From positions 2,118 through 66,117 of the forward strand of contig CAMAPK010000005.1 in assembly GCA_945860135.1 (NCBI GenBank): a stretch of DNA of 64,000 bases. Reading direction: 5' to 3'. Source of the DNA: Nitrosovibrio sp. Nv4. Lineage in GTDB: Bacteria; Pseudomonadota; Gammaproteobacteria; Burkholderiales; Nitrosomonadaceae. This document shows, piece after piece, positions 1,706 to 54,236 of this stretch (positions within the stretch are counted from its first letter, which is position 1; every line of letters begins with the position of its first letter). Both the position numbers and the translations under genes were made by a program. The notes below the pieces were generated by a model that was not told the DNA's origin, searched no databases, and worked only from the letters and a program-made list of their open reading frames with translations.

Positions 1706-2449
1706 TTATGGATGTGGCGGACGCTGCTCGTTGTCTGCTAAATCAATTATTGGCGCAGCTTTTGCTGCCATTCGTGCTGCTGCCTGGGCCGCCAGCCACT
1801 TGCCGAGAATGACGACCAGCAATGCGCCGGCTGCCGGGGCAAGCCAATGCAGCAATGGCATGCTGCTCTGGGTCCATTCCTTGGTGGCAGCATCGGTCAC
1901 CGTCATATCGCCCGCGATCCAGCCGAGCAGTCCGGCACCGATGACAATGGTCAAGGGAAAGCGATCCATCAGCTTCATCACCAGCTTGCTGCCCCAGACG
2001 ATGATGGGTACGCTCACCAATAAGCCGAAAATAACCAGGCCGATACTGTCCTTGGCGGCGCCTGCAATGGCAATGACGTTGTCCAGGCTCATCACCGCAT
2101 CAGCAACGATGATGGTCTTGATCGCGCCCAGCAGCGTGGTGCTGGCGTCGATCTCATGTGCGCCATCTTCGGGCTCGGGTTGCAGCAGCTTCACCCCGAT
2201 CCATAGCAGCAGTAATGCGCCGACAATTTTCAGAAAAGGAATTGCCAGCAGAGACAGGGCGAAAAAAATCAACACCACGCGCAGGCCGATGGCGCCGAAC
2301 ACGCCCCAGAAAATCGCCTGGTTGCGCTGTTTTTCCGGCAAGCGCCGGCTGGCGAGTGCAATCACGACCGCATTGTCGCCGCCCAGCACAATATCAATTG
2401 CGATAATTTGCACCACCGCAACCCAGAATTCCGGGCTGGAAATGTCCAT
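1706..2449 (-). CDS. TerC/YjbE-family integral membrane protein
   Basis: 247 aa polytopic protein with the duplicated LGGDNAVVIAL / MSLDNVIAIAG motifs characteristic of the TerC family. Confidence 0.85.
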   Translation of the reverse strand: MDISSPEFWVAVVQIIAIDIVLGGDNAVVIALASRRLPEKQRNQAIFWGVFGAIGLRVVLIFFALSLLAIPFLKIVGALLLLWIGVKLLQPEPEDGAHEIDASTTLLGAIKTIIVADAVMSLDNVIAIAGAAKDSIGLVIFGLLVSVPIIVWGSKLVMKLMDRFPLTIVIGAGLLGWIAGDMTVTDAATKEWTQSSMPLLHWLAPAAGALLVVILGKWLAAQAAARMAAKAAPIIDLADNEQRPPHP

Positions 2450-2548
2450 ATAATAGTCTCTGAAGGTGTTGCAGTCTGGTGGAGTACAGCCATCCCGGCT
2501 GGTTTGTTTTTGACGGAATTTCTGTCGCAGGATTATATCAGTGCCGGT

Positions 2549-3712
2549 TTAGTCTTTTTTATCAACTCCGAGAAACTGCAATATTTCCGCTGCGTGCGGC
2601 ATTGTATCCTGGTAGCCCAGCTTGATCAGCGCCCGGCAGAACGATTCCTCAAACAGGACATAACTCAATAGCGCAGAACCGTCGCGACCCATCGCGCCAA
2701 TCGCACGGTAAAAAAGACGTATGGTGCGCGGCAGAGTATGGGCATGCTGTTCTGCGATCCTGTTGATTTCCACACTGGGGAAAATCACCATCGATTCCAC
2801 CCGGCGTAGCGGAATGTTGCTACTCTCCAGTTGTTCTTGCGGAATCAACTGGATGGTCTTGTTGATACGTTGCAGCCGCTCCAGATCCACGTCAAGGCTG
2901 TCGAGAAAAATACTGCTCATGACATGGCCCGCAATCTGTGCTGGCGGTGGATAGCTTTCCACTTTTACGCGATCAGGCTGCGCTTCATCAGCTTTGCGTA
3001 CGCCTATCACCAGTACCCGGTCTGCGCCCAGATGCAGTGCCGAGCTGATGGGCGCGAGCTGGCGCATGGAGCCGTCACCAAAATATTCACGGTGTAATTT
3101 TATTGCCGGGAAAAGAAATGGGATGGCGGAAGACGCCAGCAGGTGCTCGACACCAATATGCGAGGCAATGCCGACACGGCGCGCCCGTTTCCAGGGAGCT
3201 ATGCTATCTGCGCCTTGATAAAACGTGACCGATTGTCCGGAGGTATAGCCCCATGCGGTAATGCCCAGGGCATGCAAGGCGCCAACCTGGATATTCTTCT
3301 GGATCGCGCGCAGCGGCATGCTACGCTCCAGCAGTTGAGCAAACGGTGAATTGTCCAGCATGGAAACTGCGCTACGCTTGCCTAATCCACTGAACAGCAG
3401 TGAAGCCAACCAGCGTGCGCTGTTGCCAAATACGCCGATGGGGTCGGAGCGATAAACCTGGTCGACATGGGAATTCTCCCACACTGCCGACAGCCGCCCA
3501 ACTCCTTCATGAAAGTTCCTGGCCGAGACTGCGAGGCCGGCAGCATTGATGGCGCCGGCGGAAGTGCCGCAAATGACGGGGAACGGATTGCGCGTACCCT
3601 CCGGCAGCATCGCGGCGATTGCCTGCAATACTCCAACCTGATAAGCGGCACGCGCACCGCCCCCGGTCAGAACAAGACCGACTCTAGGCGGTGCTGGCAG
3701 CGCTAAACTCAT
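2549..3712 (-). CDS. patatin-like phospholipase
   Basis: 387 aa. Oxyanion GGGARAAYQVGVL and nucleophile GTSAGAINA motifs, DGS catalytic Asp region. Confidence 0.85.
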   Translation of the reverse strand: MSLALPAPPRVGLVLTGGGARAAYQVGVLQAIAAMLPEGTRNPFPVICGTSAGAINAAGLAVSARNFHEGVGRLSAVWENSHVDQVYRSDPIGVFGNSARWLASLLFSGLGKRSAVSMLDNSPFAQLLERSMPLRAIQKNIQVGALHALGITAWGYTSGQSVTFYQGADSIAPWKRARRVGIASHIGVEHLLASSAIPFLFPAIKLHREYFGDGSMRQLAPISSALHLGADRVLVIGVRKADEAQPDRVKVESYPPPAQIAGHVMSSIFLDSLDVDLERLQRINKTIQLIPQEQLESSNIPLRRVESMVIFPSVEINRIAEQHAHTLPRTIRLFYRAIGAMGRDGSALLSYVLFEESFCRALIKLGYQDTMPHAAEILQFLGVDKKD

Positions 3713-3963
3713 TCACTGACGGTCAGCTCTGCCCTCACCTTATCCAGCGCATCGCGCAAGGTGTCTTCGGACAGGTCATTCAAACAGTTGGACAGCATCT
3801 CCGCCGCTTCATAAGCATCCTCTGGCAGAGTGCCGCTGTCCAGATTGGCGATAAACACGGCCGCTGCACCGGTAGTCTTGAGCAGACTCTGACGTTCTTT
3901 CATCAGCATCTCAATTTCGGTGCGCAACATGGAAATTTCCTGTTCTTTCAACACATGGGGCAT
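3709..3963 (-). CDS. hypothetical small helical protein, translationally coupled to the patatin gene
   Basis: 84 aa ORF. Its stop overlaps the patatin ATG by 4 nt (ATGA). No recognisable motif. Confidence 0.4.
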   Translation of the reverse strand: MPHVLKEQEISMLRTEIEMLMKERQSLLKTTGAAAVFIANLDSGTLPEDAYEAAEMLSNCLNDLSEDTLRDALDKVRAELTVSE

Positions 3964-34020: not shown

Positions 34021-34503
34021 CGTCAACGTAGCTGCCGAACCCGGAAAGCGGTTCAGGCAAGAATATTGTCAGTAGACCAGGAGCAGGGGGTAGCCTGCCC
34101 GCATAAAAATTATGACAATAGTTTTCAAACTTGAATCTCCGTTCCCGTTTCTGGCAAATGCAATTTGGAAAAAGGGGTGGTTTGCCCCGCAGTTCTTCAC
34201 TTGGAAATTTCCCCGGATGGTTAAACTGAATCCACAAGAGCCCGCGACTGGAGCAGGTTTTCTGCAAATCACCTTAAAGTTTTAGTGCGGGTGTCCGAAA
34301 AATAGGGAGCAGTAGAATGAGCCTCGATCAGGTTCTTCACCAGAATTCATGGACGCATAAGTTTAATCGTACATGGGCCATCCTGGTGCGAATCCGGACT
34401 TGCACGACTTGGAAGACGGGCTTGCGGAGGGTGTTCAATTGATCGGCGATTTCCCGGGATTCACGGTCAGACAGATTCCGTCCGCATATTTTTGTCCTCT
34501 CAT

Positions 34504-34559
34504 ATTCCTACAGAAGAATAAGCAAATTCCTACAGCAGAACATGGACCCATCCAGCACA
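34504..34559 (+). promoter_or_regulatory. direct-repeat box, copy A (ATTCCTACA-N13-ATTCCTACA-N15-ATCCAGCACA), 172 nt upstream of paralog 2
   Basis: ATTCCTACAGAAGAATAAGCAAATTCCTACAGCAGAACATGGACCCATCCAGCACA. Near-identical boxes at 50176 and 50811. The function is inferred, not demonstrated. Confidence 0.6.
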
Positions 34560-34731
34560 ATCACTCCTCGAATTGTTGTTAAGCAAGTGGAGACAGGAAT
34601 GGCGCAGTCAAGCCCCAAAATTACTGCAGGTGGATTGACTAGAATGTTGAGTCGGTATGATCTGAATGGCGCACTCTGGTGCGAACTCCGCGCTGGTTCA
34701 AAGGTTATTCAAGGTTAGTGGGAGAAAATAT

Positions 34732-35586
34732 ATGCCAAATGATATGCTGAACGCTTTCGACGAATATTTCGAAGTCGTCATTGCCGATACCCCGGAATTA
34801 TTGGAACAAGCATTCCGCCTGCGCTACACAGTGCTGTGTATTGAAGAGCGTGCTCCAGGGTTTGAAGCTGCACGCTACCCCGACGGGCTGGAAACAGACG
34901 AGTATGACCGTCATGCTCACCATCTTTTGTTAAAGCATCGTCCAACCGATACCTTCATAGGTGGCGCGCGCTTGGTATTTCCTGACCCATCAAATCCCGG
35001 AAAGCCATTTCCTGTCGAGCAGCATACTCAGATCGATCCCGCATTGATCGACATCAGCAAACTGCCGAGGCAGCATACCGTAGAAATCTCACGTTTTATC
35101 CTGGTAGGCAAATATTCCAGACGCAGAGAAGAGCGGCGCAGAGCCGAGTCTCGGGCCGCTGGCGAAAAGCGCGACCCAGGCAACCGGCGGCGTTTCCCCC
35201 ATCCGATGCTGGCGATTTCTGTTGGCATCATACGCATGTGTATCCGCCAAGGTATCACTCACTGGTTCTCAATAATGGAGCCTTCCTTGAATAGATTGCT
35301 GGGTTTCTACGAACTGCAGCTTAACCCTATCGGACCACTAGTCGATTGTCACGGACCGCGCCGGCCCTATTATGCTGAGATAAGCAAAGTGCTGGACAGG
35401 TTGTACGCAAGCAATCACCCAATCTGGGAGCTGGTTACCGACCAAGGTAGAGTCCGGCCGCTTTCCCCAATTTGCTCCCCCGATCAAACGCTTAATGCAA
35501 GCATGGTCGCCGAATCCGGAAAAAGCAGTGCATTGAGCAATCTGTTCCGGCCCCAGATGCAAGTAGAAGAAAGCATAGGTAAATAG
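34732..35586 (+). CDS. LuxI/GNAT-fold acyltransferase, paralog 2 (same family as 33256..34020)
   Basis: ORF 34666 trimmed to ATG 34732 (GGGAGAAAATAT-ATG; MPNDMLNAFDEYFEV). Roughly three quarters identical to paralog 1 by eye, plus a ~30-aa C-terminal extension. Confidence 0.65.
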   Translation: MPNDMLNAFDEYFEVVIADTPELLEQAFRLRYTVLCIEERAPGFEAARYPDGLETDEYDRHAHHLLLKHRPTDTFIGGARLVFPDPSNPGKPFPVEQHTQIDPALIDISKLPRQHTVEISRFILVGKYSRRREERRRAESRAAGEKRDPGNRRRFPHPMLAISVGIIRMCIRQGITHWFSIMEPSLNRLLGFYELQLNPIGPLVDCHGPRRPYYAEISKVLDRLYASNHPIWELVTDQGRVRPLSPICSPDQTLNASMVAESGKSSALSNLFRPQMQVEESIGK

Positions 35587-36050
35587 TGACATTGCCAACC
35601 AAAAAAATGATTAGTCGCAGTTGCCGCTTTGTCCTGTCGCTGACCCTACTGCTCGGGATGCTATCTGCTATTGGGGTGGCGCGGGCACACGAGCATTATG
35701 AGGTCGTGGTTAACAGCAGTGTCACTACGCGCAGCCTTCCCGTCAATTCCGTGCGTGCCATTTTCGGCATGCGCCAGCAGGCCTGGCCGGACGGCACACC
35801 GATAAAAGTCTTCGTGCTGGCCGACGACGCGCCGTTGCACGATTCCTTCTGCAAAGAAAAGCTGAGTGCCTTTCCCTACCAGTTACGTCAGGCCTGGGAC
35901 CGGCTGGTTTTTTCCGGTACCGGCCAGGCGCCGATTAGAGTGTCTTCGAGCGAGGAAATGTTTAGCAGAGTTGCCAGCACACCCGGGGCGATCGGTTATT
36001 TAGAAAAATCAAAAATCAGTGAGCGTATCAATGTCCTCCAGATCAAATAG
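35586..36050 (+). CDS. small periplasmic PstS/PBP-like protein
   Basis: 154 aa. GTG 35586 overlaps the upstream TAG by 1 nt (ATG 35607 is an alternative). Signal peptide, then ...STPGAIGYLEKSKI..., the C-terminal hallmark of phosphate-binding-protein-like domains. Only about half the length of a full PBP. Confidence 0.55.
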   Translation: MTLPTKKMISRSCRFVLSLTLLLGMLSAIGVARAHEHYEVVVNSSVTTRSLPVNSVRAIFGMRQQAWPDGTPIKVFVLADDAPLHDSFCKEKLSAFPYQLRQAWDRLVFSGTGQAPIRVSSSEEMFSRVASTPGAIGYLEKSKISERINVLQIK

Positions 36051-37338
36051 CCGCGCGAATAACCCGCGCACCAAGGTAGCCAAACTGATCGCTATGTTGG
36101 CCATGGCGTGGAACTTGCCTGCACAATCTCAAGTGCTGCCCGACACTATAAAAATCCCCGATTTTTTAAGCGCGACCGCAGCGCGGATGAGCGCACTGAA
36201 ACTGCCCGACACCGTGCAGGTCCATGGTTTTGCCACCCAGGGTTATTTGAACTCCACGGGGAATAATAATGTCTTTGGAAACAGTAACCAGGATAGCGGC
36301 AGCTTTGGTTTCAGGGAAGTGGGGCTCAACGCTTCGATACAGCTAAGGCCCAACCTGCTGATCTCGGCGCAGGGACTCCATCGCCATGCCGGCGTGGGCA
36401 GCCAGGATATTCGTCTCGATTACGGAGTGGTCGATTACAAGGCATATTCCGGCGAAAACAGCCAATTCGGCATACGCCTGGGCAGGATAAAAAATCCGCT
36501 CGGTTTCTACAACGAGACGCGCGATGTCGCACATACGCGGCCGAGCATCATGTTGCCCCAATCGATTTACTTTGATCGCACCCGCAACCTGGCGATGGCA
36601 GCAGACGGCGGCCATGTCTATGGCGAGACGCGTACCAGCAAGGGAGATTTTTTCTATCAGTTCGGCGTAGTCATGCCATATGTTAGTGGCGTAACTACCG
36701 AGGCGGCCATATTTGGCAGTGATCGAGCAGGGCACTTGACCTCGCAAGTGTCGTATATCGGACGCGGGATATATGAGTATGATGGCGGGCGTGTCCGTTT
36801 GGCAGTCAGCGGAGCGCAGACGAATGTAGGTTATGATCGGGGAGCCGACCCTGCGCTACGTTCGGGCCAAGTTCAATTCACACCTATTATTTTCTCCGCG
36901 CAATATAATGCCGAGCGCTGGAGCCTCACTTCCGAATACGCCATCCGCCACACTGTATCTAACAACTTTGGCCCGGGCTCACCTAATTCGGCAATTACCG
37001 GCGAGAGCTACTACTTCCAGGGTATCTATCGCTTTACCCCAAAGTGGGAAGGCGTGATACGCTACGATGCGCTGTATTCAAACAGAGATGACCGTCACGG
37101 AAGTGCGTGGGCCTCTGCAAGTCCCGCCACACGTGATTCACATAGCCGCTTTGCCAAGGACATAACTACAGGTATCCGCTGGAATGTTACCCAGTCGTTC
37201 ATGCTGGCCGCAGAGCATCACTATGTCAACGGTACTGCCTGGCTCGCGCCGCTGGATAACCCCGGTGCCAGTAGCCCCGCAGGCCATCACGCCCAGCACT
37301 GGCATCTGTTCGCGGTGCAGGGTTCCTTCCGATTTTAA
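36031..37338 (+). CDS. outer-membrane beta-barrel (porin-like) protein
   Basis: ORF 36019 (GTG) trimmed to ATG 36031. Signal peptide ...AMAWNLPAQSQ, alternating-residue strands throughout, and terminal ...AVQGSFRF with a C-terminal Phe, typical of OMPs. Overlaps the previous gene by 20 nt. Confidence 0.55.
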   Translation: MSSRSNSRANNPRTKVAKLIAMLAMAWNLPAQSQVLPDTIKIPDFLSATAARMSALKLPDTVQVHGFATQGYLNSTGNNNVFGNSNQDSGSFGFREVGLNASIQLRPNLLISAQGLHRHAGVGSQDIRLDYGVVDYKAYSGENSQFGIRLGRIKNPLGFYNETRDVAHTRPSIMLPQSIYFDRTRNLAMAADGGHVYGETRTSKGDFFYQFGVVMPYVSGVTTEAAIFGSDRAGHLTSQVSYIGRGIYEYDGGRVRLAVSGAQTNVGYDRGADPALRSGQVQFTPIIFSAQYNAERWSLTSEYAIRHTVSNNFGPGSPNSAITGESYYFQGIYRFTPKWEGVIRYDALYSNRDDRHGSAWASASPATRDSHSRFAKDITTGIRWNVTQSFMLAAEHHYVNGTAWLAPLDNPGASSPAGHHAQHWHLFAVQGSFRF

Positions 37339-40287
37339 ATGGCCATCCTGATAGAACACGACTCTCAGGAAGGCACGGTTCCATCCAAGGGCGCTCGCTT
37401 CGGGCTGCACAAATTTCTAGGCTTGAAATGGAAAGTCTTGCTGCTGAGCAGCTTGATTCTGTTTGCCATCGTAACTTTATTTACCGTAATCAGTTACCGG
37501 ATTCTAATAACCAATTTCGAAAGTCAAAGCGAGGCGCAATACCAGCGCTATATCAAGGAAGTTGAAGGCCTGATTGGACAGACCTCGCAGAATCTGCATC
37601 AGCTTGCCGGCTTGACTCCTTTCCTGAAGGGCATGGACAGCGGGCTGCTCGCAAGTGACGGAATAAGCATCACCAATGCATTCGACCTGCATTGGGCATC
37701 ATTGCAGTTGCATAACGGCATCCATCTGGTGCGCTTTTACGACAAGTCAAACCAGCGCATGGCAAGCTGGGGGGCCACTGAATTCAATCGTCACAAGGAA
37801 GATGAGATACTGGCATGGGTTAAAGAGGTCAATAGCCGGGAACAGCCTATCAGCCCGCTGAGCTGTGCCGAAAACTGCGTGCAATACGCCGTTGAACCCC
37901 TGCTGGTAGAGGGTAGAAGTGTTGGTGTCATAGTTATCGGAGCTTCCCTGGTTGACGCGGTGCTGGGCTTTGAGAATATCGCAGGTGCTGATATCGGCCT
38001 GCTTGTCAGGGAACAAAGCGGCACACCGGCGGATATTGGTAACGGCATGCGAATTCCGGGCTGGAATGCGCGCATAGCGGCACTTACCAATAGCACAGCA
38101 AATCTTCCCCTTCTCAAGCAAGCGGCAGCGAAACACTCAAGCCTTGATGAGCTGGGAAAAGGTGTTGAACTCACCTGGGAGGATCGTCACTACCAACTAA
38201 GGCAGTTGCCGCTGCGAGGGATAGCTGCATCCTCCGGGGCACGGTTGGTAGCTATCACTGATACCACCACTACGGTCGACGCCATTCGCAATTCGACCCA
38301 GCAGAATGTGGTGATAGGCCTGCTGGGCTTGCTGCTCTCGGAATTCCTGTTATTTGTCATTCTTACCAAGCCGCTGTCACGGCTGAAACACATAGTCTTC
38401 AGCTTGCCGCTCCTGGCTCAAAGCGATTTCAAGAACTTCCGCAGCGCACTTCTTTCCGCCGATCAGAAACAGTGGCTGAAAGATGAAATAGACCTGCTGG
38501 ATGAGACGGCAGCAGCGCTGTCTTATCAACTTGAGACACTTGAGGGCCAGATTGCTGACCGGACAGAGGCATTGGCCAGGCAGATGAGCGAGCTGAGCAA
38601 GGAAAGAGACTTTGTTGCACACTTGCTCGATATGGCGCAGGTGATTGTGATTACACAAAATGCCAGTGCCGAAATCATCTCGCTCAATGCCCATGGCGAA
38701 AAGATTATTCAATATGCGGAAAAGGACTTGAAGGGCAGGCCTTTCATTGATCTGCTGGTGCTGGAAGACGATCTGCATGATCTGCCTCCCCGGCTCGAGG
38801 AAATATGCCTGGAACAAAGGGAGCAGTTGCGGCATGAGACCACCACCCAGTGTAAAGATGGCACGGTACGGCATATCGTCTGGCTGCATTCCCGTCTTAA
38901 CCGGCACTCCCCAAACGACCCGGCAGTATTATCGGTAGGCCTTGATATCACCGAACACAAGCAAGCGGAAGGCCGCCTGGCCTGGCTGGCGGACCATGAT
39001 CCGCTGACCCATTTATTCAACCGCCGCCGCTTTCAGGAAGAACTGGAACGGATACTCAACCTGGCGACGCGTTATCAGCGCCCAGGCGCGCTGCTTTTCT
39101 TCGATCTGGATCAGTTCAAATATATTAACGATACCAGCGGACACCAGGCAGGCGATACTCTGCTCAAGACGGTTGCAACCATGCTGTTACGCGCCGTGCG
39201 CAATGTCGATATAATCGGACGCTTGGGCGGGGACGAATTTGCAGTGCTGCTGCCTGAAACCTCGGCGGCAGGAGCGATTACGGTAACAAAATCCATTCTC
39301 GAGCTATTGGGCGAGGCGCGGCTGACCGTGGACGACCGGACTCACAAGGCCTCCGCCAGCATCGGCATCGCACTCTTTCCGGAGCATGGCAATGATGTGC
39401 ATGAGCTGTTGGCTGCAGCAGATCTGGCCATGTACCAGGCCAAGGAAGCAGGGCGCGGCGGCTATCACCTATACTCCGAAGAGGACAAGAGTCGCGAGCG
39501 CATGCATAACCTGGTCCACTGGAAAGAAAAGATTGAGCATGCTCTCCTCAATGATCGCTTCGTCCTCTACTTCCAGCCTATTATGCATGTTCAGAGCAGC
39601 ACCCTCAGTCATTGCGAGGCACTGCTGCGCATGCTTGACGACGATGGAACGGTGCTTGCACCGGCTGCCTTCATCTCCGCGGCAGAGCGTACCGGTCTTA
39701 TTCACGAGATTGACCATATGGTGTTGCGTAAAGTCATCGCCCAGGCCGCTAGCGTCAATCTCAACCATAATGGGCAGCGGATTAATTTCTCGATCAACTT
39801 GTCCGCGCATGCGTTTAATGACCCGAGGCTATTGCAGACTCTGGATGAGGCGCTTGCGGAGAATGCGGCAGACCCCACGGATTTCCTGTTTGAAATAACC
39901 GAGACGGCGGCATTGGAAGACATGCCCGCAGCACGCAAACTCATAGAGACAATCAGAGCGCTGGGGTGCCGTTTTGCACTGGATGATTTTGGCGTCGGTT
40001 TCTCTTCTTTTGGTTACATCAAACAACTTCCCATCGATGTGGTGAAGATCGACGGGTCATTTATTAAGAACCTGGCCACCAGTCCCGATGACCGGATTCT
40101 GGTAAAGGCCTTGTGTGATGTGGCGCGAGGATTTGGCAAGAAAACCACGGCCGAGTTTGTAGAGAATGCAGAGACCCTCTCCTTGCTGGGGGAACTGCAG
40201 GTAGATTATGCGCAGGGCTATTTTGTCGGCAAGCCCGTGCCGGCGGGCGAGTCGTTCTTTAAGCATCTGCTAAAAACCAGCAGCTGA
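37339..40287 (+). CDS. membrane sensor diguanylate cyclase/phosphodiesterase (periplasmic domain-HAMP/coiled coil-PAS-GGDEF-EAL)
   Basis: 982 aa. The ATG directly follows the OMP TAA. Two TM helices flank a ~270-aa periplasmic region. PAS block, RNVD I-site plus RLGGDEFAVLL, then an EAL domain (YFQPI, CEALLRM, FEITE, DDFGVG). Confidence 0.9.
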   Translation: MAILIEHDSQEGTVPSKGARFGLHKFLGLKWKVLLLSSLILFAIVTLFTVISYRILITNFESQSEAQYQRYIKEVEGLIGQTSQNLHQLAGLTPFLKGMDSGLLASDGISITNAFDLHWASLQLHNGIHLVRFYDKSNQRMASWGATEFNRHKEDEILAWVKEVNSREQPISPLSCAENCVQYAVEPLLVEGRSVGVIVIGASLVDAVLGFENIAGADIGLLVREQSGTPADIGNGMRIPGWNARIAALTNSTANLPLLKQAAAKHSSLDELGKGVELTWEDRHYQLRQLPLRGIAASSGARLVAITDTTTTVDAIRNSTQQNVVIGLLGLLLSEFLLFVILTKPLSRLKHIVFSLPLLAQSDFKNFRSALLSADQKQWLKDEIDLLDETAAALSYQLETLEGQIADRTEALARQMSELSKERDFVAHLLDMAQVIVITQNASAEIISLNAHGEKIIQYAEKDLKGRPFIDLLVLEDDLHDLPPRLEEICLEQREQLRHETTTQCKDGTVRHIVWLHSRLNRHSPNDPAVLSVGLDITEHKQAEGRLAWLADHDPLTHLFNRRRFQEELERILNLATRYQRPGALLFFDLDQFKYINDTSGHQAGDTLLKTVATMLLRAVRNVDIIGRLGGDEFAVLLPETSAAGAITVTKSILELLGEARLTVDDRTHKASASIGIALFPEHGNDVHELLAAADLAMYQAKEAGRGGYHLYSEEDKSRERMHNLVHWKEKIEHALLNDRFVLYFQPIMHVQSSTLSHCEALLRMLDDDGTVLAPAAFISAAERTGLIHEIDHMVLRKVIAQAASVNLNHNGQRINFSINLSAHAFNDPRLLQTLDEALAENAADPTDFLFEITETAALEDMPAARKLIETIRALGCRFALDDFGVGFSSFGYIKQLPIDVVKIDGSFIKNLATSPDDRILVKALCDVARGFGKKTTAEFVENAETLSLLGELQVDYAQGYFVGKPVPAGESFFKHLLKTSS

Positions 40288-49437: not shown

Positions 49438-49688
49438 TGGGGTTGTATCCTGGCGTTCTATTGAACGGCTTGAGTGTTAGACCGAAAGGCCGTTGAGTGT
49501 CAGGAGGTGATCAGGCTTCAGCTCCACAGTTGCCATTCGTATAAATACGCGAATGCGTGCTGGCGGGCAGACCGGTTGCAGAGCAGTAGCAACTATTTGA
49601 ACGTTAATGATGAAATAAGGCATCAAGCATGTTTTGTGTGTAGAATTCCACCACTGGCTCATTTCATTGCGGATAGCGCATTTATCGA

Positions 49689-50063: not shown

Positions 50064-50175
50064 CCAGACTCGCGTGATTTCGATCAATAGATGCGCCAAG
50101 ATCACGCATCCAGGACACCTCTGCTGAGATCGCCTGCGACTTGTGTCAGGCAGACTTTCCACTCATGCTTCCTCT

Positions 50176-50231
50176 ATTCCTACAGAAAAATAGGCGGATT
50201 CCTACATTGGAATGTTGGCCTATCCAGCACA
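50176..50231 (+). promoter_or_regulatory. direct-repeat box, copy B, 107 nt upstream of PilZ paralog 2
   Basis: ATTCCTACAGAAAAATAGGCGGATTCCTACATTGGAATGTTGGCCTATCCAGCACA. Same phasing as copy A. Confidence 0.6.
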
Positions 50232-50338
50232 CTTTCCCGGTCTTAGTAGTCGAGGGCGCTAATGATAAGACTATGCAACAATATATGTTGCGCGTAGAAC
50301 TCCTGCCTTCACCTTGTCGCACATAGTGCAATCATCAA

Positions 50339-50723
50339 ATGAGTATTGAAAACCGGGAATTTTCGCGTCATTACGCGCGCTGGCGGATCGCCATCGTTTT
50401 CGATGAGTCAGAAAGCAAGCCGACCATCCATGGCCATACGCATGACGTGTCGCTCAGGGGCGCCTCCGTATACACCGAACATAATGTGGTTTCCAACACG
50501 CCGGTCACGGTTCTGCTGTCCCCCCCCATTGGCGCATGAGGGGGAGCGGCAGAAAATAATCGAAATCAGAACGCAACTAGCTTATTCGGTATATGCAGGC
50601 AGCAATTATTGCTTCCGCATCGGTCTGAATTTCATCAAATTCAAGAATGATGGTCTGCGAGTTCTCAAGGACAAGCTTGATAACCAGATTCTCTTGAGTT
50701 CGATAGGGGTAAAACCTGCGTGA
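50339..50723 (+). pseudogene. single-domain PilZ protein, paralog 2, split by a +1 frameshift in a C8 tract (50520-50527)
   Basis: ORF 50339..50539 carries REFSR and DVSLRGAS and ends ...LLSPPIGA*. ORF 50346..50723 continues ...PPLAHEGERQKIIEIRTQLAYSVYAGSNYCFRIGLNFIKFKND... Removing one C restores a 127-aa protein colinear with paralogs 1 and 3. Confidence 0.7.
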
Positions 50724-50810
50724 GCGGCCACCTGCTTCGTGCTTCGGAGCGTTATGAGAAATTGTACCTAAGGCCCAATCAGGTTCCTGCTGCATATTCT
50801 GTCCTCCCAA

Positions 50811-50867
50811 ATTCCTACAGAAGAATCGGCGGATTCCTACATCGAAATGTCGCGGCTATCCAGCACA
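50811..50867 (+). promoter_or_regulatory. direct-repeat box, copy C, 93 nt upstream of PilZ paralog 3
   Basis: ATTCCTACAGAAGAATCGGCGGATTCCTACATCGAAATGTCGCGGCTATCCAGCACA. One extra nt before the third element. Confidence 0.6.
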
Positions 50868-50960
50868 ATTGCTTACATCCCAAGCTCCCAAGTCAAAGCT
50901 GCAACCGGGGATGGGAATGGGGCGGTTAAATCATAAAATCAACCTAGCTCGAGACTAAAT

Positions 50961-51374
50961 ATGGCCATAGAAGATAAACGAGCGGCTCCACGCTATCGTG
51001 CGCACTGGAAAATCTCTATCATTTTCGATGCGACGGAGAAAAAGCCCATCATTCATAGTTATACCAATGACCTGTCGCTCAGCGGCACGGCAGTAAACAC
51101 CGACCTTAACGTAGCCTCCACAAAACCGGTCACGGTCCTGCTATTCCCGCCATTGAAGTATGGAGAGGATAAGCAGAAAACAATCGAAATCAGATCGAAT
51201 CTGGTCTATACAATATATTCAGGTAGTGATTCTTGCTTCCGCATCGGTCTGCATTTCATCAGCTTCAAGGACAATGGCCTGAAATTCCTCAAGGATATAC
51301 TCGATCGCCAGTTTTCTGTGGGTTCGAGAGATGAAAAACTTCCGGGAATGCCGGCAGGCGGGGTTTTTGGCTGA
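50961..51374 (+). CDS. single-domain PilZ protein, paralog 3
   Basis: 137 aa. RAAPR (RxxxR), DLSLSGTA (DxSxxG). C-terminal half (CFRIGLHFISFKDNGLKFLKDILD) is colinear with paralogs 1 and 2. Confidence 0.7.
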   Translation: MAIEDKRAAPRYRAHWKISIIFDATEKKPIIHSYTNDLSLSGTAVNTDLNVASTKPVTVLLFPPLKYGEDKQKTIEIRSNLVYTIYSGSDSCFRIGLHFISFKDNGLKFLKDILDRQFSVGSRDEKLPGMPAGGVFG

Positions 51375-51494: not shown

Positions 51495-54236
51495 ATGCAA
51501 CATGCCAATCCTCGCTACCTTCCTTCATTTTCTTGTGGTCACACGCAATCCGGCCAGATCATTCTGCGCGACGGAACAACAGCGGCGATTCGTCCCTCCG
51601 TACCAACAGACCAAACCGCCTTGCAGAATTTCATGGAGCGGCTTGCACCCGAATCCAGGAGGCATCGCTTTTTTTCCGCAACTTCGCCGACTGGCGAAAT
51701 TGTCGCATCGCTGTGCGATTCGACAGACCCCTGCACCCGCCTGACCCTGGTAGTAACCCGTGTCTGGGATGGGGCGCTGCGGATTATCGCGGCAGGCTCG
51801 TATTTGGCGCGAGATGAACGCACAGCCGAGGTCGCCATGGCGGTGGACGATGCCTTCCATGGGAAAGGGCTGGGTACGCTCCTGCTTGAGCGGTTGGCGA
51901 TGTCGGCCATCCAGCACGGCTTTGTCCGCTTGTGGGCGGTCACACACACGGATAATCTGGCGATGCGTGAAGTCTTTCGGGAATCCGGCTTCGACATGCA
52001 GGAAAGCTGCGAAGGCGGAGAGGTCGAAGTCGAGCTGTCTCTGATCCCCACAGAAACCACCCTGGCCCATTCTGAGTTGCGGGACCGCATTGCCACTACC
52101 GCTTCGCTGCATCCATTCTTTCACCCGCGGGCAGTAGCGGTCATCGGTGCCTCGCGCGATCCGCGCAGTATCGGTTACCGATTGGTCGAGGCCTTGACCG
52201 GCAATCGCTTTCATGGCGCCACTTACCCGGTGAATCCACGGGCGACGGAGATTGCCGGCCTGCAGGCGTATCCGTCGCTCGCAGCCGTACCCGGCAGCGT
52301 CGATCTGGCCATCATTGCCGTGCCGCGCGATCTGGTCCTGACTGTGGTCGACGAGTGCGCGGCCAAGGGAGTGCGGGCCATAGTCGTGATTACTGCCGGG
52401 TTTGCCGAGACTGGTGAGCAAGGCAAGCAACTGCAGGATCGTCTGGTCGAGAAAGTACGCCAGCAAGGCATGCGCATGATCGGCCCGAATTGTTTCGGTC
52501 TACTGAATACCGATCCGGCGGTCTGTCTCAATGCAACCTTCACCACTACGTTTCCGCCGCCGGGGCGGGTCGCGATGTCATCCCAGAGCGGCGCACTGGG
52601 AATAGCCATTCTTGCTGCGGCGCAGCGGCTGCAACTGGGGATCTCGTCTTTTGTCAGCGTCGGTAACAAGGGCGATGTGTCCGGCAACGACCTTTTGCAA
52701 TACTGGGAAGAGGACCCCGCAACCCATGTCATCCTGCTGTATCTGGAATCATTCGGCAACCCGCGCCGCTTTGCGCGCATTGCGAGACGAGTGAGCCAGC
52801 GTAAGCCTATCATTGCGGTGAAAGCAGGCCGGAGCCAGTCTGGATGCCGTGCCGCCGGTTCCCACACTGCTGCGCTGGCGGCAAGCGACGTGGGAGTGGA
52901 AGCATTGTTCCACCAGACCGGAGTGATACGCGCCGAGACATTGGAAGAGATGTTCGCGCTGGCGGCGGGCTTGTCGGCCCAGCCACTGCCGGCAGGCCGA
53001 CGGGTCGGGATCATCACCAACGCAGGCGGGCCGGCGATACTCTGTACCGATGCGTGCGAGGCCAGCGGCTTGACGGTGCCAGAGCTGTCAGCCTCGACCA
53101 GGGCCGCACTCGCCGCATTTCTGCCGTCCGCCGCTGCGCTCAACAATCCGGTGGATCTGATCGCCTCTGCCACCCCGGAACAGTACGCCCATGCAATCGA
53201 AGCCGTGTTGAAAGCAGATGAGGTCGATGCGCTGATCATATTGTACGTCTCGCTGATGGCTGCTGACGTGTCCCCGATCGCAGACGGCATTCTGGCAGGA
53301 CTCGCCGCCGCACAGGAAGCAGACATGCCGAAGAAACCGGTGTTCATCTGCTGGATGGCGGAAGGGGACCCGAATCGCTCCTTTACCTTGTCGGGCGAAA
53401 CGATCCCCGTTTATCGCATGCCGGAAGTTCCGGCGCGGGTGCTGGGCAAGGCTGCTAGCTATACCGAATGGAGAGCGCGGCCGTGCGGCGCGATCCCGGA
53501 TTTTGCCGACATGGATCTGCCGCTGGCGCGCGAAATTTGTGACAAAGCCCTCGCGCAGCGCGGCAGCGGCTGGCTGACCACGCAAGAGACCAGTGCGCTG
53601 CTGACGGCAGCCCGGTTGCCGCTGCTGCCGGGGGACATCGCCACGACCGCCGATGCCGCAGTTGCTCTGGCACGAACCATCGGTTTTCCGGTTGCAGTAA
53701 AACTGGCCTCGCATACTCTCGTGCACAAAACCGAGATCGGCGGAGTCCATCTGAATCTGGCTGACGAGACCGCCGTGCGGGAAGCATTCGAGGCAATTCG
53801 CGCGCGGCTGGCGCAGGATCATAACCTGGCTGCGATGGAAGGGGTGTTGGTGCAGCCGATGATGCCGGACGGCGTCGAATTGATGATCGGGGTCACGCAC
53901 AACTCGCTGTTCGGTCCGCTGATTGCGTTCGGCCTGGGCGGCATCCATGTGGAAATCCTCGGTGACGTGTGCTTTCGCATCACTCCTCTCAGCGACTGCA
54001 ATGCTGCCGAAATGGTGCGCGAGATCAAAGGCTACCGGTTGCTTACCGGTTACCGCGGTCACCCGCCGGCGGATGTGGCGGCAATTGAACAGGTACTGTT
54101 GCGTATCTCGCGTCTGGTGGAAGAAATTCCCGCGATCAGGGAGCTCGATCTAAACCCGGTTCTGGCCCTGCCGCCTGGTCAGGGCTGCCGCATCGTGGAC
54201 GCGAGGATACGCATTGACGCGAACGTGCCGGGATGA
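51495..54236 (+). CDS. Pat-like fusion: N-terminal GNAT acetyltransferase + ADP-forming acyl-CoA synthetase (CoA-binding, ligase-CoA, ATP-grasp) domains
   Basis: 913 aa. N-terminus IRPSVPTDQTALQNFMERLAPESRRHRFF matches the Pat-type GNAT motif. It is followed by AVIGASRDPRSIGY (CoA-binding), ITAGF, MIGPNCFG, SQSGAL and a C-terminal ATP-grasp (GFPVAVKL...HKTEIGGV). Confidence 0.8.
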   Translation: MQHANPRYLPSFSCGHTQSGQIILRDGTTAAIRPSVPTDQTALQNFMERLAPESRRHRFFSATSPTGEIVASLCDSTDPCTRLTLVVTRVWDGALRIIAAGSYLARDERTAEVAMAVDDAFHGKGLGTLLLERLAMSAIQHGFVRLWAVTHTDNLAMREVFRESGFDMQESCEGGEVEVELSLIPTETTLAHSELRDRIATTASLHPFFHPRAVAVIGASRDPRSIGYRLVEALTGNRFHGATYPVNPRATEIAGLQAYPSLAAVPGSVDLAIIAVPRDLVLTVVDECAAKGVRAIVVITAGFAETGEQGKQLQDRLVEKVRQQGMRMIGPNCFGLLNTDPAVCLNATFTTTFPPPGRVAMSSQSGALGIAILAAAQRLQLGISSFVSVGNKGDVSGNDLLQYWEEDPATHVILLYLESFGNPRRFARIARRVSQRKPIIAVKAGRSQSGCRAAGSHTAALAASDVGVEALFHQTGVIRAETLEEMFALAAGLSAQPLPAGRRVGIITNAGGPAILCTDACEASGLTVPELSASTRAALAAFLPSAAALNNPVDLIASATPEQYAHAIEAVLKADEVDALIILYVSLMAADVSPIADGILAGLAAAQEADMPKKPVFICWMAEGDPNRSFTLSGETIPVYRMPEVPARVLGKAASYTEWRARPCGAIPDFADMDLPLAREICDKALAQRGSGWLTTQETSALLTAARLPLLPGDIATTADAAVALARTIGFPVAVKLASHTLVHKTEIGGVHLNLADETAVREAFEAIRARLAQDHNLAAMEGVLVQPMMPDGVELMIGVTHNSLFGPLIAFGLGGIHVEILGDVCFRITPLSDCNAAEMVREIKGYRLLTGYRGHPPADVAAIEQVLLRISRLVEEIPAIRELDLNPVLALPPGQGCRIVDARIRIDANVPG

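Follow-up and report, generated by a model that had tools for sequence, protein, structure and literature searches.

The 64-kb window analysed here (the whole stretch of 64,000 nucleotides from contig CAMAPK010000005.1 of Nitrosovibrio sp. Nv4, with positions counted from its first letter) carries three intergenic boxes, A, B and C, each built on a pair of identical 9-mers, ATTCCTACA-N13-ATTCCTACA, and located upstream of an acyltransferase operon or of a PilZ gene. A preliminary description of this stretch had reported them as 22-nt-phased direct repeats in a single orientation, and re-reading the window bore out their positions, sequences, phasing and orientation:

Box A, 34504-34559, + strand, with 9-mers at 34504-34512 and 34526-34534.
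Box B, 50176-50231, + strand, with 9-mers at 50176-50184 and 50198-50206.
Box C, 50811-50867, + strand, with 9-mers at 50811-50819 and 50833-50841.

The downstream start codons reported with them (ATG at 34732, 50339 and 50961) and their distances from the boxes are also correct. Box A precedes an operon of four overlapping or abutting genes, and tandem PilZ paralogues follow boxes B and C:

34732-40287, + strand, target operon of box A.
34732-35586, + strand, PEP-CTERM/exosortase-associated acyltransferase (TIGR03694, 266 bits).
35586-36050 and 36019-37338, + strand, two open reading frames (ORFs) with no Pfam or NCBIfam match.
37339-40287, + strand, dCache-PAS-GGDEF-EAL gene, the last of the box A operon.
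50339-50723, + strand, PilZ2, downstream of box B, frameshifted in the window.
50961-51374, + strand, PilZ3, downstream of box C.

The 9-mers start exactly 22 nt apart in boxes A, B and C, as in all related loci, with a 13-nt spacer between them. We counted six exact copies of ATTCCTACA in the window, all on the + strand and all inside the three boxes. Allowing up to three mismatches, the pair was found only in these boxes, against a shuffle expectation of 0.01, and 0 of 100 shuffles reached three. Acyltransferase paralogue 1 and PilZ1 had been described as lacking a box, and a pattern scan of the window found none upstream of either; ATTCCACCA at 49646, upstream of PilZ1, is an isolated weak match. 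The extension GCATATT..TGTCCTC.CA common to boxes A and C is real and is present in orthologous loci too. Regarding the third element, ATCCAGCA, it is present as described, and its reading as a further repeat was rejected: it lies 24-25 nt away, out of the 22-nt phase, and coincides with a conserved -10-like hexamer. The boxes had also been distinguished from dispersed repetitive extragenic palindromic (REP) elements, with good reason. A Nitrosospira metagenome-assembled genome (MAG) holds only four exact boxes, so that three copies in 64 kb and four in this representative MAG (not a complete genome) do not behave as REP elements or miniature inverted-repeat transposable elements. All boxes, in the window and in the MAG, are intergenic and co-oriented with a gene that starts 50-230 nt downstream.

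The exact 9-N13-9 pair was looked for in 185,579 species genomes, and about 220 box-bearing loci (numbered with the prefix L) were used to search for the regulator. In Nitrosospira, other Nitrosomonadaceae and Sideroxydans, the exact pair lies upstream of orthologous PilZ and acyltransferase genes. The pair was also present, with unrelated spacers, in Methylotenera, several gammaproteobacterial lineages, Sedimenticolaceae, Thiohalomonadaceae, a Burkholderiales MAG and others, and the gammaproteobacterial boxes contain the literal RcsAB consensus TAAGAATATTCCTA. Besides, a metagenome scan gave about ten useful loci among the matches listed, the rest being mostly unrelated 22-nt and 11-nt tandem repeats. 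In six loci of uncultured Gammaproteobacteria (L009, L034, L045, L049, L056 and L084) the box is followed by a small ORF, conserved and about 70 aa long (...EQESDQLLQEIIQLELEIDKVMALNGNRE...), and in L045, L056 and L084 it adjoins thrS. An RNA element or small RNA was considered and rejected: the leaders had no Rfam match at E<=1, and the gammaproteobacterial boxes precede the small ORF, not a small RNA. Outside the Proteobacteria, most pattern matches are 22-bp tandem repeats, ATGATTCCTACAATCATnnnnn, in L013, L020, L023, L057 and other Bacteroides loci. A multi-copy element has at least five copies on one 46-kb contig (L039, L046, L061, L070 and L092) and is also found at many Kiritimatiellia/Lentisphaerae loci; it consists of three direct (A/T)TTCCTACA heptads in 11-bp steps, behind which stands an inverted copy (TTCCTACA-N4-TGTAGGAA). 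Literature searches for the motif itself, the EvgA consensus and VpsT sites returned no usable match.

The 9-mer has the letters of a known half-site. The EvgA box is of the TTCYTACA type, as a direct check on the E. coli K-12 sequence bore out: two EvgA-regulated regions there read TTCTTACA-GC-TGTAGGCA (safA-ydeO promoter) and TTCTTACG-CC-TGTAGGAT (emrK-evgA region). In Pfha the optimal site for BvgA is TAAGAAATTTCCTA, and BvgA dimers are placed every 22 bp on centre with the proximal dimer abutting the -35 (PMC7250471); the RcsAB box is TaAGaatatTCcta, the right half of which is reported as the RcsB site (PMC4325325); and the upstream activating sequence (UAS) of GacA is TGTAAG-N6-CTTACA (PMC4950607). 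All six window copies of ATTCCTACA agree with the half-site heptad (A/T)TTC(C/T)TA and its optional CA. Judged by its letters, ATTCCTACA is one arm, the right one, of the 18-bp palindrome TGTARG-N6-CYTACA, which NarL/FixJ regulators use (GacA, BvgA, RcsAB and, as TTCYTACA, EvgA). Read with their left arms (arms separated by a hyphen), the sites of the window are:

Box A site 1, 34497-34510, + strand, CTCTCAT-ATTCCTA, perfect right arm and degenerate left arm, predicted centre near -64.5.
Box A site 2, 34519-34532, + strand, TAAGCAA-ATTCCTA, predicted centre near -42.5, abutting the -35 region.
Box B sites, 50169-50204, + strand, TTCCTCT-ATTCCTA and TAGGCGG-ATTCCTA.
Box C sites, 50804-50839, + strand, CTCCCAA-ATTCCTA and TCGGCGG-ATTCCTA.

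Box A site 2, TAAGCAAATTCCTA, is identical to the BvgA primary site of Pfha at 12 of 14 positions. It is the sole 14-mer of the window to reach 13/14 against the combined consensus TARGAAWWTTCYTA, a scan in which no other single strong dimer site was found. The statistics on the architecture cover 20 independent groups of sites (40 sites). The 7 nt located 5' of ATTCCTA match the inverted heptad TAGGAAT at five or more of seven positions in 9 of the 40 sites, with a null rate of 2% (P=1e-7), and the left-arm consensus of site 2 across the groups is TAAGAAA. Full 18-bp palindromes are found in L073 (TGTAGGAATATTCCTACA) and in L017 and L229 (TGTAGGAAAATTCCTACA), and L221 has two of them (TGTAAGAATATTCCTACA) 22 bp apart. 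On a metagenomic contig (L201, 9400-9520) there are three exact sites of the type TGTAAGnnn followed by ATTCCTACA, with a partial fourth copy upstream, all in 22-bp steps; they adjoin a block of large co-oriented ORFs of putatively phage-like appearance. A NarL-like 7-2-7 arrangement (ATTCCTA-CA-nnnGAAT) was also tried and rejected, being seen in the window and not in independent loci.

Downstream of the second 9-mer, at a distance counted from its start, each box has a -10-like hexamer:

Box A, 34556-34561, + strand, CACAAT at exactly +30, predicted transcription start near 34568.
Box B, 50228-50233, + strand, CACACT, predicted start near 50240.
Box C, 50864-50869, + strand, CACAAT at +31, predicted start near 50876.

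The orthologous locus L014 has TATAAT in place of the box A hexamer, one nucleotide closer (+29). Among the 25 proteobacterial sites, 10 to 12 have a -10-like hexamer at exactly +30; counted by independent groups, the figure is 7 of 20 against a background of 5.7% (P=7e-5). Given this fixed position, ATCCAGCA is therefore best taken as the -10 region, and the dimer centres would fall near -42.5 and -64.5, with the proximal site abutting a poor -35. With the starts as predicted, the geometry of the boxes matches that of BvgA, 22 bp on centre and with the proximal dimer next to the -35. No consensus sigma-70 -35/-10 promoter was called in the three box intergenic regions, which fits activator dependence, and in terms of the predicted elements the proximal site stands beside a sigma-70 promoter with a weak core.

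To follow the conservation of the boxes, we compared the window with related strains, among them the Nitrosospira MAG (loci L038 and L098), which is 93-96% identical. At box A one segment is free of substitutions with respect to two diverged members of Nitrosospira:

34493-34578, + strand, functional module of box A, with both sites, the weak -35, the -10 and the predicted start.

These 86 nt carry zero substitutions with respect to L166, a locus with about 16% divergence in its box A intergenic region, and 34464-34578 shows zero differences with respect to L038. Between box B and L098 there are four substitutions, all of them outside the 9-mers and the -10, and the few substitutions of boxes B and C taken together are distributed in the same manner. 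Sideroxydans and other Nitrosomonadaceae have kept the box upstream of their orthologues of the acyltransferase and PilZ genes. We conclude that it is a real, selectively maintained cis-regulatory module. A conserved dyad, CAGGTTCCTG (GCAGGTTCCTGC in orthologues), was also seen at 50780-50789 and at the equivalent positions of L014 and L090. Counted from the centre of box C site 1, it stands about 26 bp further upstream, off the 22-bp phase, and may be the site of a second factor.

Searching the ORFs of the window by phmmer with EvgA and a second response regulator as queries (E<=1e-3), we found no response regulator of any family, in agreement with the preliminary description, which had seen no candidate regulator gene there. 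In other genomes, EvgA-like NarL-type regulator genes are present in 6 of the approximately 220 box loci, all 52-317 nt from the box, and L097 and L221 share the gene order HisKA_3 kinase, NarL-type response regulator, box, target gene. Within 2.5 kb of the boxes (25 loci, 119 ORFs), the commonest Pfam families were Response_reg with seven occurrences and GerE with five. GerE/LuxR is the only DNA-binding domain that recurs there; LytTR, Trans_reg_C and sigma-54 activators did not recur in this set, in which a single LytTR occurrence is possible. In Methylotenera (L088, Methylophilaceae), the box is found 68 nt upstream of a NarL-type response regulator gene. Orthologues 63% and 53% identical to this regulator keep an upstream box, CCTCCTACA/CTTCCTACA-N13-ATTCCTACA, with a -10-like hexamer at +30, a pattern typical of autoregulation. 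Besides, the box-adjacent response regulators share with EvgA the recognition-helix pattern T-V-S-x-[YFH]-[KR].

The half-site identity, the geometry, the conservation and the link to NarL-type response regulator genes in other organisms point in the same direction: the box is probably a pair of docking sites for an activator of the LuxR/NarL family (BvgA/EvgA/RcsB/GacA type) placed upstream of three promoters. We infer that the sites are bound, that binding activates rather than represses transcription from the starts predicted above, and that the Nitrosospira regulator belongs to this family. The preliminary description had taken the box as a multi-site operator for one regulator and assigned the latter to the LytTR or OmpR/PhoB families; the first part stands and the second is not supported, as the 9-mer equals the NarL/FixJ half-site and GerE is the one DNA-binding domain that recurs near the boxes.

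Several observations weigh against the proposal of a NarL-type activator. Box B shows no more conservation than the sequence on either side of it, though its 9-mers and -10 are intact. Boxes A and C and the fourth box of the MAG (L093) are similar over about 100 nt, so that part of the resemblance is common descent; given this and the tandem paralogy behind boxes B and C, the three copies cannot be counted as fully independent by descent. In five of the six window sites the left arm agrees at four of seven positions at most, and the window strictly contains direct repeats, not palindromes. The -10 hexamers (CACAAT, CACACT) are weak, and the starts are predictions only. No cognate regulator gene lies in the window, and no NarL-type or EpsA-type ORF was found there or in the Nitrosomonadaceae loci fetched, a set that gave no regulator for Nitrosospira. 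The homologues of the Methylotenera response regulator are confined to Methylophilaceae, with none found in Nitrosomonadaceae, and the most diverged orthologue examined (L238, 44% identical) has no box. Finally, the box-adjacent response regulators are generic NarL/FixJ proteins that score best to UvrY/SirA/GacA and stay below every equivalog cutoff.

One could also think of other proteins at these sites. EpsA (TIGR03020) is a LuxR-type helix-turn-helix protein of the PEP-CTERM/exosortase exopolysaccharide (EPS) loci, not a response regulator. It would suit the target of box A, a PEP-CTERM-associated acyltransferase, its helix-turn-helix superfamily is the one proposed here, and in Methylotenera (L004) an epsA gene (223.7 bits, cutoff 170) is located some 600 nt upstream of a box, which directly precedes PEP-CTERM EPS export and chain-length genes. 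This adjacency was not seen at three other epsA loci: the Methylophilus loci (EpsA 80% identical, syntenic EPS operon) and a more diverged one have no box at up to two mismatches. Moreover, EpsA has TVKNHLKR as its recognition helix, unlike the EvgA-like pattern of the response regulators next to boxes, and neither the window nor any other box locus has an EpsA-like ORF. Since the L004 adjacency did not generalise and the helix differs, we rejected EpsA as the binder and regard it as unlikely; the EPS operon of L004 is more likely a target of the box. A small ORF between epsA and the box of L004 (3668-3982) has an end (SEP...hydrophobic stretch...NRRSV) that resembles a PEP-CTERM sorting signal. 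Regarding the LytTR-type regulators (AgrA/ComE/AlgR class), their operators are 9-bp direct repeats with a spacer of 12-13 bp, the downstream repeat standing next to the -35. Two 9-mers separated by 13 nt have just this geometry, and the repeats of the window look direct, not palindromic. The AgrA and AlgR consensus sequences, which we take to be ACAGTTAAG and CCGTTCGTC, are however unlike ATTCCTACA, the 9-mer matches NarL/FixJ half-sites, inverted partner heptads are enriched as given above, LytTR does not recur among the 119 near-box ORFs (GerE does so five times), and the window has no response regulator, all of which leaves this family improbable. Still less can be said for a winged-helix regulator of the OmpR/PhoB type. 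This family does use phased direct repeats close to the -35, as seen here, but usually every 10-11 bp; Trans_reg_C does not recur near the boxes and the half-site is that of another family, so we consider it highly improbable.

The remaining explanations concern the promoter. PrsR motif 1, a 17-nt sequence ending in TTTACA, is found about 63 nt before the -24 GG/-12 GC promoter of PEP-CTERM genes (Haft 2006), and the boxes might be enhancers of this kind acting on a sigma-54 promoter at a similar distance. The family of the box A target is PEP-CTERM-associated, CCTACA closes the box, and TGGCGC occurs 65 nt past the second 9-mer of box A. We rejected this candidate, whose probability we take as negligible: no -24/-12 promoter above background lies behind any box (no GG-N10-GC; the best match, 7-8/12, equals the background median), the -10 at the fixed +30 is of the sigma-70 type, and no sigma-54 activator recurs near the boxes. 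It could also be argued that the boxes are a duplicated or mobile promoter-leader cassette, similar by recent common descent and not by selection for a dedicated regulator. Boxes A and C, L093 and the Sideroxydans copy do have some 100-150 nt in common, flanks and part of the leader included, a tandem PilZ duplication lies behind B and C, and the leaders of A and C have a common block, GGAATGGSGCRGTYAA..AAAAT, at 34596-34621 and 50914-50939. This block varies between strains and for that reason resembles what is left of a duplicated cassette more than an element under constraint; only 34493-34578 is free of substitutions between strains. In addition, what unrelated Proteobacteria have in common is limited to the 9-mers, the partner heptad and the -10 position, with quite different spacers; there are only four copies per genome, always co-oriented with the gene; and neither terminal repeats nor a transposase are present. 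Duplication of a cassette thus accounts for some of the likeness of A, C and L093, not for the between-strain footprint or the features of unrelated lineages, and is very improbable as the whole explanation.

If the boxes are sites for a NarL-type activator, each of them would be the activator-binding part of a sigma-70-type promoter, with two sites 22 bp apart for a dimeric NarL/FixJ response regulator (LuxR/GerE helix-turn-helix). At this spacing both dimers would therefore lie on one face of the helix and, as the left arms in the window are weak (box A site 2 apart), the dimers probably bind cooperatively. The dimer near -42.5, the proximal one, would abut the poor -35 and recruit RNA polymerase, with the distal dimer near -64.5. 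The fourth box of the MAG (L093), which corresponds to a region outside the window, precedes an HDOD-domain gene. A regulator encoded outside the window could in this manner co-activate the N-acyl-amino-acid-synthase-like operon with its GGDEF-EAL sensor, the two PilZ genes and the distant HDOD gene. The preliminary description had proposed one regulon of a lipid-signal synthase, a GGDEF-EAL sensor and receptors of cyclic di-GMP (c-di-GMP); the boxes do behave as a multi-site operator, and the MAG extends the list with the HDOD gene. As the same type of site is found in front of the PEP-CTERM EPS export operon of Methylotenera, our analysis suggests that a biofilm or floc programme may be under the control of the box. 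In its fullest form, the model would be a small regulon, kept from Nitrosospira to Sideroxydans and governed by one orphan NarL-type regulator, that joins the synthase operon and its periplasmic dCache-GGDEF-EAL sensor to stand-alone PilZ and HDOD proteins in a lipid-signal/c-di-GMP circuit. This circuit, possibly self-reinforcing, would control flocs or biofilms in ammonia and iron oxidisers, with the box-less synthase paralogue giving a basal signal; we put it forward as speculative and, taken as a whole, rather unlikely.

Regarding the genes downstream of the boxes, the two ORFs without family match (154 and 439 aa), which follow the acyltransferase and precede the dCache-GGDEF-EAL gene, are translationally coupled. 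In Sideroxydans (L091), the box is followed by the acyltransferase and the two ORFs in the order of the window, with the ORF pair at 2113-3868 of that locus. The frameshift of PilZ2 falls in a run of eight C at 50520-50527; the 95%-identical MAG (L098) has seven C and an intact gene of 127 aa, and the C8 run could be a sequencing error, the sign of a pseudogene or, directly behind box B, a phase-variable tract. Beginning 120 nt past PilZ3, at 51495-54236, there is a 913-aa fusion of GNAT and ADP-forming acyl-CoA synthetase domains, with the architecture of a Pat-like protein acetyltransferase, which may be co-transcribed from the predicted box C promoter.

Biofilm and floc regulation in nitrifiers, and the physiological role of PEP-CTERM-associated synthases of N-acyl amino acids, are poorly understood. 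The operator would link such a synthase transcriptionally to genes of c-di-GMP turnover and reception. Once defined, it offers a handle, as bait for pulldown or DNA affinity purification sequencing (DAP-seq) and as a position weight matrix for the prediction of the regulon.

In order to contextualize the boxes, we compared them with the systems they resemble. PrsR motif 1 has in common with them the link to PEP-CTERM genes in Betaproteobacteria, the YYTACA end and an occasional repetition; it differs in having a sigma-54 promoter, absent behind the boxes, and another promoter spacing. The operators of AgrA, ComE and AlgR are alike in what we take to be their geometry, with a different consensus, no inverted partner and LytTR genes that do not recur near the boxes. 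The RcsAB box of enterobacterial exopolysaccharide operons shares the right half ATTCCTA and the tie to exopolysaccharide/biofilm genes, but it is a single site for an RcsA-RcsB heterodimer without a 22-bp tandem, unlike the boxes. The GacA/UvrY UAS has the same 18-bp palindrome frame (L073, L221 and L201 read TGTARG-N6-CCTACA), and UvrY/SirA/GacA are the proteins to which the box-adjacent regulators score best. GacA sites, however, stand further upstream (-75, -196; PMC4950607) and drive small RNA genes, whereas the boxes are tandem, promoter-proximal and located before protein-coding genes. The E. coli EvgA box (TTCYTACA-N2-TGTARGAA) has the identical 8-nt half-site, terminal CA included, in a single 18-bp site whose arms face the other way, with the TACA ends at the centre. 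The BvgA promoters of Bordetella (Pfha, Pptx and Pfim3) have the heptad TTTCCTA/ATTCCTA in head-to-head sites (TAAGAAATTTCCTA as compared with TAAGCAAATTCCTA), dimers 22 bp on centre on one helix face, a proximal dimer at a poor -35 and a mixture of strong and weak sites. They contain three to six sites and the boxes two; in the boxes, moreover, conservation of the right arms is perfect and CA extends them, most left arms are degenerate, and the organism and the regulon are others, with no BvgAS-like genes identified. The TGTARG-N6-CYTACA site in a BvgA-like 22-bp tandem geometry would be in use well beyond the pathogens in which it was defined.

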